This document shows positions 2,739 to 5,987 of a stretch of DNA of 11,380 bases, piece by piece. A program made the translations under genes and the position numbers. The stretch is from a virus. Each line of letters starts with the position of its first letter. The first letter of the stretch is position 1. The notes under the pieces are model-generated. The model worked only from the letters and a program-made list of their open reading frames with translations. It was not told where the DNA came from and made no database searches. Location of the stretch: the IMG/VR virus record IMGVR_UViG_3300036045_000388; one strand, 5' to 3'.

Positions 2739-2975
2739 ATGTCTTCAAGAGAAGCAGTCACAAGGTTGACACTTGAACAGGAAGAACAATGGGAATCCAT
2801 TGTTCGTGTTGCTAAATTCGCCCTTTCCGAAGGCAAAAAAAACATGATTGTTGACCTTGATATTCTTGTTGCTGTCGCCAATTCTTATATGTCGATGGCA
2901 AACGAGCTTGTCATTCGGCGTGGCTTGATGGATGCCGTTTGTTTGGATGGATTTTGCAAGGAATCGCCCAAATGA
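2739..2975 (+). CDS. hypothetical small protein (78 aa), translationally coupled to the NADAR gene
   Basis: This is the first ATG after the upstream stop. Its TGA (2973-2975) overlaps the ATG (2972-2974) of the next gene as ATGA. The ORF track extends the same frame upstream to 2595 (TTG/ATG alternatives), which would overlap the preceding gene by about 100 nt, so the true start is uncertain. Confidence 0.4.
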   Translation: MSSREAVTRLTLEQEEQWESIVRVAKFALSEGKKNMIVDLDILVAVANSYMSMANELVIRRGLMDAVCLDGFCKESPK

Positions 2976-3397
2976 GTGAAGCAATTCTAGGATTTTCAGG
3001 CAAATACAGATTTATGTCCAATTTCTCAGCCAGCGAGGTTGAGTTAGATGGTCTTGGGTATCCAACTGTCGAACATGCATACCAAGCAGCAAAAACCTCT
3101 GATGCAACTGAACGCCGAAGAATTAGAGAAGCTGATAGCCCTAGTAAGGCTAAAAAGCTTGGGCAACAAGTCAAGCTCAGAGCGGATTGGGAAGAAGTCA
3201 AGCTCCAAATCATGGAGGACTTACTGATTCAGAAGTTTTCTGATCCGGCTCTGAAACAAAAACTGCTTGACACAGGCGAAGCTTATCTGGAAGAAACAAA
3301 TACCTGGGGCGATAAGTTCTGGGGTGTATGTAAAGGTAATGGCAAAAACCATTTAGGCAAGATTCTGATGAAAATCAGAAAATCATTGGGAGAATGA
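2972..3397 (+). CDS. NADAR (YbiA-like, DUF1768) domain protein, about 141 aa
   Basis: Family hallmarks are present: FSGKYRFMSNF near the N-terminus, EHAYQAAK, and a C-terminal ...ETNTWGDKFWGVC.GNGKNHLGKILMKIR. The ORF track starts at an upstream TTG (2939). The ATG at 2972 overlapping the upstream stop is more plausible. TGA at 3395-3397. Confidence 0.8.
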   Translation: MSEAILGFSGKYRFMSNFSASEVELDGLGYPTVEHAYQAAKTSDATERRRIREADSPSKAKKLGQQVKLRADWEEVKLQIMEDLLIQKFSDPALKQKLLDTGEAYLEETNTWGDKFWGVCKGNGKNHLGKILMKIRKSLGE

Positions 3398-3398
3398 A

Positions 3399-5987
3399 AT
3401 GAGTCAGCAAGTTGAAGGCAAGCGTGATTTGGTGTTGGCTCCTGGCGAGTACGCTTATCTTCAGGATGAAACCAGGGGCATGGTTAAGACCTTTGCTGGT
3501 CCGACCGTCATTAACCAGACGGCACAGGATCGGCCTGTAGTGTATGAAGCTGAATCTAGCGGCTTCAAAAGATGCACTACTTTGGAGCAGGCTGTTAAGA
3601 AGAGTCCTACGGCTTCGGAAGGCGACTACATCGTGCTGGAAAACCCAGCCGAACAAAACAGTCATCCCGACGAAGGCCAAAGTCGGCCCATGCCCTCTTT
3701 GAAGATTGGCCGTAAGGTCAACATTCCTGGCCCATGTCAGTTTGCTTTGTGGCCTGGACAAAGGGCGACCGTGTTGCATGGCCACCACTTGCGATCCAAT
3801 CAATATTTGCTCGTTCGTATTTACAACGAACAAGAAGCAAAGCAAAATTGGGGACAGGCTGTTGCAGTCCGCACCAGCGAAGAATCTGAGGCAACTCCGG
3901 TTACTGCCGCAGTTGAATCCTTGAATCTGACCATCGGCAAGCTCTTGATTATCAAGGGCACAGAAGTCAGCTTCTACATTCCGCCGACTGGCGTAGAAGT
4001 TGTCTGTGATGACTCTGGTAACTATGTTCGTGAAGCTGTGACTTTGGAACGCCTTGAGTATGCAATTCTTGTTGATGAAAATGGCAACAAGAGATACGAA
4101 AGGGGTCCGCAGGTTGTCTTCCCAAGGCCGACCGAAAGCTTCTATGTCGAAAACAATAACCGCAAGTATAAGGCCATTGAATTGAATAAGATTCAAGGCT
4201 TGCACATCAAAGTTATTGCCGACTACGAAGAAAGCGATAAGAAATACAGCGTGGGCGACGAGTTGTTCATCACTGGTGAGCAGACCCCGATCTATTACCC
4301 ACGAGTTGAGCATTCAATCATTCGCTACGGCGAAAAGAATAAACATTACGCAACTGCTTTGCCTGCTGGCGAAGGTCGTTATGTAATGAATCGTGAGTCT
4401 GGCAAGATTGAAACGGTTAAAGGACCGTTGATGTTATTGCCTGATCCACGCCGAGAAGTCATTGTTCGTCGCATACTGAGCGACAAGCAAGTTAAGCTCT
4501 GGTATCCAGGCAACGATGAAGCTTTGGCTTACAACCAGCAGCTTCGTGCCGTCGCTCATGCGGCCCCTTCTGCCAGAAGCGGTTTCATTTCCGAAGGCGA
4601 CGTACAACGTAGTCAGCGTGCGGGTGGAGGGGTATTCCCTGGCGCAACGCTACAAGATTACACAGAGGAAGCCCTTCCTCTTGAAGCAACTTTCGCTGCT
4701 ACTTCTGCACATCAGGCCGGTGTGCAAAAGAAACTATTGTCCAATGTTGGCAACGCTGCATTGCCTGATGCCTTCAATCGTGGCACTGGTTACACCCAAC
4801 CACGCACAGTAACTCTGGACACCAAGTATGAAGGCGTCCCTGGCATTACCGTATGGACTGGCTACGCTGTTCTGGTCGTATCCAAGACTGGTGAGCGACG
4901 TGTAGTTACAGGACCGTCAACGATCCTGTTGAATTACGATGAGTCGTTGGAAGTCCTAGAACTTTCGACTGGCAAGCCGAAGACCACAGATAAACTGGAA
5001 AAGACAGTTTATCTGCGAATTGTCAACAACAAGGTAAGCGATATTGTTGCGGTTCGCACCAAGGATCATGTCGATATCAACCTCAAGTTGAGTTATCGTG
5101 TGAATTTTGAGGGCGAACCGACCAAGTGGTTTGAAGTTGAAAACTACGTTAAGTACCTTTGCGATCATGTTCGCTCTGTTCTCAAGGGTGCGTGCCAGAA
5201 GCGTCCTGTTGAAGAATTCCATACTAATGGTGTGGATATTGTCAGGGATATCATCCTTGGCGCAGCGGACGAAGCTGGTAAGCGTGCCGGTATGTTGTTC
5301 ACTGATAACGGCATGAGGGTCACGGACGTTGAAGTCCTTGGCATCGACGTTGCTGATGAAGACATTGCCAACATGCTCAATGAAGCACAGCATGAAGTTG
5401 TGCGATCCAACATTGAACTTCACCAAGCAGAGAAGCAACTGGTTGTTTCCAAGCGACGTGAAGAAATTAACCGTGAGAAAGACGAAGCAGAAACCACCAC
5501 GGCGAAACGCAAGGCAGAGTTGCAGGCCGAGTTGGTTTCTCAGCAACAGGCTGTTACTCAGGCCAAGATTGCTTCTGAACTCGCTTTGGCTTTGAAGCAA
5601 AAAGAAGCAGAGCTTGCAAAGGAAGAAGTTCGCAACGTATCTGCCTCTGCTGAGTTGCAACGTCGTCGCAATGCAACAGAGCAAGACCTTGCAGCCGAGA
5701 AGACTAAGCAAGATTTGCGAGTTGCCAGCATCGTTGCTGAAACTGAAGCGGCTGTTAAGAGATTCGGTGCTGCACAAGAAGGCTTCTCTGAAGCATTGCT
5801 GCAACTCCAGAGTCAGGAAACTCTCGTTAAGGTTGCAGAAGCGTTGTCGGTGCAAAACTTCTTGGGCGGTCGTGACTTCACTGAAGTCATCAACAAGTTG
5901 TTTGCTGGCTCTCCGCTGCAATCTCTGATTTCAAAGGTCGGGGAACGTGCGGCAGGATTACCGTTGCCTGCAACCAATAAAAGATAA
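3399..5987 (+). CDS. major vault protein (MVP) homologue, 862 aa
   Basis: ATG lies 1 nt after the NADAR stop, with GGAGA 8 nt upstream. The N-terminus (LVLAPGEYAYLQDETRGMVKTFAGPTVIN) resembles the first MVP repeat (IRIPPYHYIHVLD...VEVGPKTYI). Several further repeats of about 55 aa have the pattern G(E/D)...(I/F)..P. A shoulder/SPFH-like segment, WFEVENYVKYLCDHVRSVLKGACQKRPVEEFHTNGVDIVRDII, aligns to vertebrate MVP [39 protein letters not shown]. A long Ala/Glu/Gln/Lys-rich cap-helix region follows, ending in ...INKLFAG (compare MVP ...INLFNTAFG). TAA at 5985-5987. Confidence 0.85.
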   Translation: MSQQVEGKRDLVLAPGEYAYLQDETRGMVKTFAGPTVINQTAQDRPVVYEAESSGFKRCTTLEQAVKKSPTASEGDYIVLENPAEQNSHPDEGQSRPMPSLKIGRKVNIPGPCQFALWPGQRATVLHGHHLRSNQYLLVRIYNEQEAKQNWGQAVAVRTSEESEATPVTAAVESLNLTIGKLLIIKGTEVSFYIPPTGVEVVCDDSGNYVREAVTLERLEYAILVDENGNKRYERGPQVVFPRPTESFYVENNNRKYKAIELNKIQGLHIKVIADYEESDKKYSVGDELFITGEQTPIYYPRVEHSIIRYGEKNKHYATALPAGEGRYVMNRESGKIETVKGPLMLLPDPRREVIVRRILSDKQVKLWYPGNDEALAYNQQLRAVAHAAPSARSGFISEGDVQRSQRAGGGVFPGATLQDYTEEALPLEATFAATSAHQAGVQKKLLSNVGNAALPDAFNRGTGYTQPRTVTLDTKYEGVPGITVWTGYAVLVVSKTGERRVVTGPSTILLNYDESLEVLELSTGKPKTTDKLEKTVYLRIVNNKVSDIVAVRTKDHVDINLKLSYRVNFEGEPTKWFEVENYVKYLCDHVRSVLKGACQKRPVEEFHTNGVDIVRDIILGAADEAGKRAGMLFTDNGMRVTDVEVLGIDVADEDIANMLNEAQHEVVRSNIELHQAEKQLVVSKRREEINREKDEAETTTAKRKAELQAELVSQQQAVTQAKIASELALALKQKEAELAKEEVRNVSASAELQRRRNATEQDLAAEKTKQDLRVASIVAETEAAVKRFGAAQEGFSEALLQLQSQETLVKVAEALSVQNFLGGRDFTEVINKLFAGSPLQSLISKVGERAAGLPLPATNKR

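Follow-up and report, generated by a model that had tools for sequence, protein, structure and literature searches.

The stretch of DNA analysed here (the window, 11,380 nucleotides of the IMG/VR virus record IMGVR_UViG_3300036045_000388) encodes a homologue of MVP (major vault protein), which forms the shell of vaults, immediately downstream of a gene of the NADAR family. The gene pair and its surroundings comprise the following features, with positions counted from the first letter of the window (ORF, open reading frame; aa, amino acids):

2390–2692, plus strand: ORF of 100 aa, an ORFan, which overlaps by 20 nt the 3′ end of the upstream glycosyltransferase-like gene.
2739–2975, plus strand: ORF of 78 aa, an ORFan, whose TGA at 2973–2975 overlaps the NADAR start (ATGA).
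2972–3397, plus strand: NADAR gene, 141 aa, YbiA subfamily, with ATG at 2972 and TGA at 3395–3397.
3388–3393, plus strand: Shine-Dalgarno-like GGGAGA within the 3′ end of the NADAR gene, 5 nt before the MVP ATG, as read from the sequence.
3399–5987, plus strand: MVP homologue, 862 aa, with ATG at 3399 and TAA at 5985–5987.
5995–6032, no strand assigned: perfect hairpin (17-bp stem, 4-nt loop) between convergent genes, which likely acts as an intrinsic terminator in both directions.

The layout given for the 78-aa ORF, NADAR and MVP in a preliminary description of this DNA, namely the ATGA overlap, the 1-nt spacing, the Shine-Dalgarno sequence and the hairpin, was found to be correct. The start codon of MVP is read 1 nt past the stop codon of NADAR, and the two genes are translationally coupled in a bacterial or phage-style arrangement. 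A contig of a second, independently assembled sample (Logan SRR7091384) carries an MVP identical to this one and yields the same gene calls, that of the 78-aa ORF included. The preliminary description had also presented the genes as an operon beginning at 2739. The tight packing in bacterial or phage style and the translational coupling stand, but the string of co-directional, tightly packed plus-strand genes starts at position 8, well before 2739. The coding density of the window is ∼96%, with overlaps between several unrelated genes. The promoter scan of the window returned 25 promoter-like sites against 20.8 expected and no significant signal marking 2739; it did not rise above background and defines no start of the operon.

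The protein of 862 aa is a genuine homologue of MVP and belongs to the bacterial/phage branch of the family. Comparison with Pfam revealed an MVP_shoulder domain (PF11978; E-value 1.5e-28, score 99.7 bits, cutoff 25) at residues 543–653, covering positions 2–118 of the 118 in the profile, and a Vault_3 match (7.9e-10) at residues 496–534, while no PADLOC or NCBIfam family was matched. The similarity to rat and human MVP chains is significant both directly (phmmer, 5e-20) and by profile (3.7e-27). The profile alignment to human MVP spans residues 466–802, residues 214–347 weakly match human R6–R7 in register, and profile self-alignment detects weak internal repeats (179–252 against 285–358, 6e-4).

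An AlphaFold2 (AF2) model of the monomer was built from 118 homologues, an earlier run with 22 sequences having yielded a confidence score (pLDDT) of 54.8 and too poor an N-terminus. The mean pLDDT of the final model is 74.9, with values above 90 at residues 10–150 and 480–660, the shoulder included. The architecture consists of beta-rich repeats (residues ∼1–540) interrupted by a low-confidence insert at 411–474, the shoulder of the SPFH type (543–653), one continuous cap helix (654–789) and short C-terminal helices. In the Foldseek search against the PDB the top 12 matches were all MVP chains, with E-values of 1e-28 to 1e-22 over ∼880–980 aligned columns, followed by crystal structures of murine MVP R1–R7 (1.7e-8), with generic SPFH proteins at 2e-7 or weaker. 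The possibility that the protein is only a generic SPFH/band-7 protein was rejected, given the presence of repeats, shoulder and cap helix, the lead of MVP chains by ∼21 orders of magnitude and the matching of the N-terminus to R1–R7. The claim of a full-length homologue is thus upheld by the Pfam and rat/human MVP matches, the predicted fold and the structural search, the protein being colinear with solved MVPs over its whole length.

In comparison with eukaryotic MVP (rat, human and rabbit; PDB 4V60, 9BW5, 9Z4W), the protein from the window is of similar length (862 versus 861–893 aa) and has the same order of N-terminal beta repeats, SPFH shoulder, cap helix of ∼140–150 residues and short C-terminal region. 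However, the two are only ∼16–17% identical over the structural alignment, likeness in sequence shows chiefly in the part that extends from repeat 9 through the cap helix, and the insert at 411–474 is additional. Assembly into a closed cage of 39-fold symmetric half-vaults, as in the eukaryotic vault, is a possibility for the window protein, which was modelled as a monomer. As for the partners of the eukaryotic particle, no TEP1-like (TROVE/NACHT/WD40) or PARP-like domain was found in the ORFs of the window by Pfam, and no vault-RNA, Y-RNA or tRNA-like gene lies beside MVP in the window according to ARAGORN and Rfam (E≤1).

The gene upstream of MVP codes for a NADAR protein, as had been claimed; it belongs to the YbiA subfamily and is predicted from its sequence to be an ADP-ribosyl/ribosyl N-glycoside hydrolase. 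The assignment is supported by Pfam (PF08719, E-value 3.3e-28, 99.4 bits against a threshold of 35.1), phrog_1017 (6.8e-46), TIGR02464 (87.5 bits against a cutoff of 73.7) and Escherichia coli YbiA (2B3W, 9.2e-21). Homologues occur in 675 phage records, the best being that of the huge phage LR756511 (64% identity). Three classes are distinguished by the catalytic residue: Glu in the YbiA type, Asp in DarT1-linked NADARs and His in the T4 gp30.3 type (PMC11125620). In a sequence alignment, E108 of the window NADAR (‘YLEE-TNTWGDKFWG’) stands opposite E125 of YbiA (‘KLVE-HTENDAYWG’), so that the protein has the Glu of the YbiA type, unlike the other two classes.

Members of the NADAR family are found in more than 48% of medium and jumbo phages and are associated with RNA repair and with early host-manipulation regions (PMC9503650), and phage NADARs reverse the ADP-ribosylation of guanine by DarT1 (PMC11825919, PMC11125620). 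The protein from the window resembles orphan phage anti-DarT NADARs (AdfN; PMC11825919) and the YbiA family (PMC11125620) in being a stand-alone protein of ∼140 aa with catalytic motifs present and no cognate toxin nearby, although an anti-defence role is in this case a prediction. Neither an ADP-ribosyltransferase (ART) nor DarT or another toxin family was detected by Pfam or PADLOC in the neighbouring ORFs. The gene is therefore an orphan, in contrast to the NADARs of DarT-NADAR and YarT-YbiA toxin–antitoxin pairs, which adjoin an ADP-ribosyltransferase.

Eukaryotic vaults are associated with PARP4 and the TEP1 NADase, and the echo of this vault and ADP-ribose connection in the NADAR–MVP pairing may be taken as an analogy. 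The SPFH shoulder of human MVP has a ‘keyhole loop’, and behind it NAD+, ADP and ADP-ribose are bound (PMC12280208; bioRxiv 10.64898/2026.05.01.722283). In the alignment to rat MVP, S523-T-G-K526-P527-K528 of the window protein lies opposite the human-type S-A-G-R504-P-K506, the motif S-x-G-[KR]-P-K being kept. Of the 158 MVPs from bacteria and phages that were compared, every one has P527 and K528, and 156 have S523. Most other residues of the NAD+ pocket differ, however: R507, P508, H509, R511, L517, D521, F522 and W545 are replaced by T, T, D, E, R, N, K and V, respectively. Since the loop is kept while the rest of the pocket is not, binding of NAD+ or ADP-ribose by the window MVP is possible, judging from the alignment, and unproven.

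It may be supposed on these grounds that the two genes form a dedicated vault/ADP-ribose module. A pocket in the shoulder of the MVP shell, like that of human MVP, would take up NAD+, ADP-ribose or nucleic acid bearing ADP-ribose, NADAR would be the enzyme partner or cargo of the shell, and the two would jointly destroy or sequester defence signals or adducts based on ADP-ribose, a prokaryotic and phage counterpart of the vault–PARP4–TEP1 association. In addition to the ligands of human MVP and the conserved keyhole motif, the translational coupling in the window and the recurring proximity of NADAR in phages speak for such a module. On the other hand, the remaining pocket residues are unconserved, the conserved loop could be purely structural, the window holds no ART, TIR or PARP gene (Pfam, PADLOC), the pair comes apart within the window's own clade, and none of the 80 bacterial MVP loci described below contains NADAR. 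We therefore consider this explanation improbable. The same doubt applies to the notion that the repeated, phage-specific juxtaposition, along with a keyhole loop common to MVPs from phage to human, reflects an ancient vault–ADP-ribose link. Phage cages would then hold NAD+, ADP-ribose or nucleic acid bearing ADP-ribose, the ligand on which NADAR would act. If it were true, the eukaryotic vault–PARP4/TEP1 association would descend from a prokaryote/phage conflict system open to genetic dissection.

The genomic context of the pair is that of a large phage. According to a tblastn map, NADAR, a 291-aa protein, a 186-aa protein and purC have homologues in LR756511 (595 kb) at 64%, 38%, 41% and 61% identity, respectively, in the order and relative orientation seen in the window, and the three genes besides NADAR find their best or sole phage-database match in one region of that genome. 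The closest MVPs (60–75% identity) are encoded on contigs of 75–177 kb, with a cluster-longest contig of 287 kb recorded for one of them. Close relatives share the gene order Peptidase_M24 ... glycosyltransferase-like ... MVP ... 186-aa ... SAICAR-synthase and consist mostly of small unknown genes, along with scattered tRNAs, a release factor, CsrA and weak terminase and gp13 matches. The GC content of the window is 43%, nine of its 14 ORFs have no Pfam family above threshold, and several have PHROG matches. On the basis of the synteny with LR756511 and the gene content of the relatives, the window is most likely a fragment of a huge/jumbo phage genome and not of a bacterial chromosome. The arrangement that had been described as unmistakably bacterial is thus indeed of bacterial/phage style, but its setting is a huge-phage genome rather than a cellular operon.

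A cellular origin of the contig, either as a bacterial chromosomal operon or as eukaryotic contamination with a coincidental operon-like layout, nevertheless deserves consideration. MVP homologues are abundant on Myxococcota chromosomes, the window contains no capsid or terminase gene, and one relative with 62% MVP identity, L087 (JAKOSN010000207.1, a 36-kb contig), belongs to a metagenome-assembled genome (MAG) labelled Planctomycetota. This relative groups with the phage clade in the neighbour-joining (NJ) tree; its contig could stem from a phage and have been assigned to the bacterial MAG by a binning error. Against a bacterial chromosome stand the synteny with the curated genome of LR756511, the 43% GC, the predominance of ORFs outside Pfam together with the PHROG matches, and the tRNAs, release factor and weak terminase and gp13 matches of the relatives. 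Eukaryotic contamination was rejected because of the start/stop overlaps, the Shine-Dalgarno sequence, the high coding density and the phage synteny, and the contig is certainly not eukaryotic. A cellular source is, all in all, hardly credible.

Within this contig MVP differs in composition from its surroundings. Its GC content is 49.2% (48.6% at third codon positions, GC3), whereas NADAR has 42.5% (GC3 38.0%) and the contig without MVP 41.1%, which makes MVP a GC outlier and NADAR not. The MVP is 52–57% identical over its full length to Myxococcota proteins, and in the NJ tree, which is without support values, its clade groups with MVPs of Myxococcota, apart from most phage MVPs. The outlier status and this grouping suggest that MVP was acquired separately, probably from a higher-GC donor such as Myxococcota.

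The presumed rarity of MVP in prokaryotic-type genomes was contradicted by the searches. Among the candidates scored, 5,963 MVP homologues were found at E≤1e-5, many of them from Myxococcota at 53–55% identity. Pattern scans placed MVP in at least 212 bacterial species, mostly Myxococcota, of a one-genome-per-species collection and in at least 186 IMG/VR viral contigs, many of 100–500 kb. The huge phages LR756500 (462 kb) and LR756501/503 (735 kb) encode it as well. Bacterial MVPs have already been described (Daly 2013, PMC3762200; bioRxiv 10.1101/872010; Burroughs & Aravind 2016, as cited in PMC13404743). Those of Myxococcota, Cytophagales and Cyanobacteria share the Pfam architecture of the window protein, which groups with MVPs of Myxococcota in the NJ tree, although they reside on high-GC chromosomes and not on a low-GC phage-like contig.

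The abstract and Results of bioRxiv 10.1101/2023.11.10.566534 report two human-gut Caudoviricetes with MVP, ctOa11 and ct2Ri15, and do not mention a NADAR adjacency. As described in these sections, those MVPs are, like that of the window, borne by tailed phages and most similar to bacterial MVPs, while the window MVP comes from a huge-phage lineage related to LR756511. The phage MVPs counted above lie far above the two gut phages reported there. Earlier papers already cover phage NADARs, the occurrence of MVP in phages and prokaryotes and its link with RNA repair; what the present locus adds is a lead and not a discovery.

To evaluate the pairing itself, MVP loci with flanks of at most 10 kb were compared, 87 of them phage-like and 80 bacterial. 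Their ORFs were called and clustered, and the phage loci were dereplicated at 70% MVP identity into 51 clades. NADAR was found within 10 kb of MVP in 21 of the 87 phage loci (10 of the 51 clades) and within 1.5 kb in five clades, upstream or downstream and in differing arrangements; both genes are on the same strand in 20 of the 21 loci. Among the ten clades with NADAR within 10 kb, the distance is thus no more than 1.5 kb in five, where uniform placement would lead one to expect ∼15% (P ∼0.01, from a crude null that relies on 70%-identity clades and assumed genome sizes). As a close neighbour of phage MVP, NADAR ties with the DUF2828/DUF7788 protein for the commonest, and it is absent from all 80 bacterial loci (1.33 Mb). 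The question left by the preliminary description, whether the adjacency recurs in other genomes, is thus answered in the affirmative.

The pair is, however, not a fixed module. LR756511 keeps NADAR in the corresponding place, the gap that MVP would fill measures only ∼370 bp there, and its record contains no MVP at all, whereas five close relatives (L004, L005, L171, L172 and L173) keep MVP within the Peptidase_M24...SAICAR_synt synteny without NADAR. In two others (L003 and L169) an unrelated gene of 161–165 aa separates NADAR from MVP, and one close relative has a gp30.3-type NADAR 5 kb from MVP. This separability, together with the looseness of the recurrence, indicates that NADAR and MVP are not an obligate two-component machine.

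The main rival explanation draws on the same observations: an orphan, AdfN-type NADAR would occupy its usual place, an unrelated, acquired MVP would have been inserted beside it, and the tight spacing would be normal phage packing. The solitary NADAR of LR756511, the relatives with MVP alone or with a gene between the two, and the GC content that sets MVP apart and NADAR not are all in agreement with such a chance adjacency, as are the commonness of NADAR in large phages (homologues in 675 phage records and, according to PMC9503650, a presence in >48% of medium and jumbo phages) and the ∼96% coding density with its overlaps among several unrelated genes. It accounts less well for the spacing of 1.5 kb or less in five separate MVP clades, for the skew of the distances towards close spacing, for the tied rank of NADAR as commonest close neighbour, and for the co-residence of NADAR and MVP in the RNA-repair islands of many phages. 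Chance adjacency is therefore possible but rather unlikely.

RNA-repair markers are present in 36 of the 87 phage MVP loci, in 16 of the 21 loci containing NADAR and in 18 of the 80 bacterial loci. The typical order within an island is a DUF2828/DUF7788 (vWA-like) protein, MVP, an RlaP nucleotidyltransferase, a metallophosphoesterase, cREC, an RNA ligase, NADAR, a metallophosphoesterase, an AAA_33 kinase and a metallophosphoesterase. In bacteria, RtcB adjoins MVP in 14 loci, in line with a 2026 preprint (PMC13404743, citing Burroughs & Aravind 2016) that places the bacterial homologues of MVP in operons with RtcB and implicates them in RNA repair. NADAR and MVP are common to the window and many of the RNA-repair islands of phages, but the window lacks the ligase and the end-processing enzymes and does not itself qualify as such an island.

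Taken together, these data suggest that the NADAR–MVP pairing is recurrent, facultative and phage-specific, and that it is best explained by RNA-repair/anti-defence neighbourhoods which both genes share. We put the probability of this reading at roughly 55%. Several points weigh against it. No RNA ligase, RlaP, DUF2828, kinase, tRNA-like or Rfam RNA was found in the 11.4-kb window, and repair enzymes are also absent within ∼10 kb of MVP in its closest relatives, so that the RNA-repair interpretation is borrowed from more distant phages. Accessory genes cluster in phage genomes generally, and the null model for the recurrence is, as said, crude. The grouping of the MVPs depends on a tree that carries no support values, and the window itself holds no phage structural gene such as capsid or terminase. 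Finally, we know of no bacterial or phage MVP for which the cage form has been demonstrated experimentally.

Under the shared-neighbourhood reading, the window would be an accessory-gene block of a huge/jumbo phage. NADAR and MVP would be co-transcribed with the upstream genes, the hairpin after MVP would end the unit, and the UGA of NADAR, from which 1 nt separates the AUG of MVP, would together with the Shine-Dalgarno sequence in the NADAR 3′ end provide for translational coupling. In the infected cell, the SPFH shoulder and the long cap helix may allow the MVP to oligomerise into a shell resembling a ring or cage, while the YbiA-type NADAR may strip ADP-ribose from nucleic-acid bases or process small molecules derived from ADP-ribose. 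Both genes would have been drawn from a phage pool of counter-defence and RNA-damage-response functions, and they probably share the timing of expression and a role related to conflict, albeit in a loose linkage.

To our knowledge, what vaults do has been an unsettled question since 1986. The MVPs of bacteria and phages are a simpler system for work on the shell protein. The comparison reveals that MVP is widespread in large phages and often sits there among genes for RNA repair and ADP-ribose processing, with NADAR among its commonest close neighbours there and in none of the 80 bacterial loci. The locus described here adds a compact, translationally coupled NADAR–MVP pair from a huge phage and is a convenient entry to the questions of whether MVPs of the prokaryotic type form cages and whether they bind ADP-ribose.

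The island loci of IMG/VR, seen at ∼10 kb on each side of MVP, are L049, L062, L084, L082, L072, L046, L051, L065, L074, L079 and L083. Their contents include three metallophosphoesterase families, cREC_REC, two RNA-ligase families, the AAA_33 kinase, RlaP and NADAR, and the DUF2828 protein is often located directly 5′ of MVP. By analogy, islands with DUF2828, MVP and NADAR resemble a set of vault-like parts, that is, a shell, a vWA protein and an ADP-ribose enzyme. A TROVE/Ro60-like nature of DUF2828/DUF7788 was looked for, with no sequence match in the PDB, no TROVE match in Pfam at E≤10 and only weak vWA matches.

Several phage MVP loci are rich in RNA genes. Transfer RNAs with a CUA anticodon (tRNA-Pyl in ARAGORN) lie within a few kb of MVP in L014 (13700–13774), L038 (13533–13606), L046 (1672–1746), L057 (5991–6064) and L058 (1415–1489). 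They are probably amber suppressors, a hint that the phages concerned recode stop codons. Large tRNA arrays border many of the MVP loci (L011–L013, L020, L021, L029 and L038), while L015 (7592–7959) and L016 (7456–7797) have phage tmRNA genes ∼2 kb upstream of MVP. Matches to the RAGATH-33 small RNA over the gathering score are found upstream of MVP, beside tRNAs, in L049 (2224–2336) and L084 (6132–6260).

The 78-aa and 100-aa ORFs belong to no Pfam, PHROG or PADLOC family and have no homologue among the ORFs of the 167 MVP loci (phmmer, E<10); relatives have other small ORFs in their place. As these two are conserved nowhere in the 167 loci, nothing supports the earlier proposal that they are candidate cargo or partners of MVP. 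The ORFs of 91, 64 and 191 aa likewise have no homologue there, save for one match at 0.072 of the 64-aa ORF.

The hairpin at 5995–6032 is very stable (free energy of the RNA fold −27.2 kcal/mol, z = −7.0), none of 200 shuffled sequences being as stable. The U tract (UUUGUAUU), which is short and has interruptions, lies partly inside the stem, and the DNA directly 3′ of the hairpin reads TTTGTATT. A consensus terminator scan of the window did not call this hairpin, because the A/U-extended stem probably absorbs the T run. The strong intrinsic terminator that had been placed after MVP is therefore confirmed as a hairpin, while its function, in view of the short U tract and the silent scan, is likely and not proven; we consider it a likely bidirectional intrinsic terminator. 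The last codons of the 91-aa ORF on the minus strand (6011–6286), which has a four-Cys zinc-ribbon-like motif (CDNC...CRCGG), fall inside the hairpin.

The syntenic portion of LR756511 was contained in the locus LR756511.1 218000–243000 (L167), at ∼10178–13100 in locus coordinates. A second, divergent NADAR copy of this phage (31% identity) is found ∼10 kb away, at 22527–22994 of the same locus. In the window, a full-length SAICAR synthase gene (purC; 10252–11187, plus strand; NF010568, 2.1e-105) represents an auxiliary gene of purine biosynthesis and is located 3′ of MVP in most close relatives examined.

Some of the other genes of the window are also shared with relatives. The 272-aa protein (576–1394, plus strand) has an N-terminal hydrophobic segment and three Cys-rich modules containing CxxC, joined by proline-rich linkers (PPPPSPPLPPPP); it is 56–60% identical to counterparts in L003 and L004 and gives only weak zinc-ribbon and PHROG matches. 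The 306-aa protein (1489–2409, plus strand), with 50–52% identity to proteins of L004 and L005, matches the hydroxyproline O-arabinosyltransferase family HPAT over the Pfam cutoff (1.5e-6). HPAT is known as a plant family, and the 306-aa protein is probably a phage glycosyltransferase. The 651-aa protein (8274–10229, plus strand) belongs to no family and consists of four small KOW/SH3-like modules (‘KVGD.V’) between highly charged E/R-rich helices; its relative in L003 is 728 aa long and encoded on the opposite strand. The gene following the 91-aa minus-strand ORF (6328–6621, plus strand) codes for a DUF1508 protein (5.3e-14).

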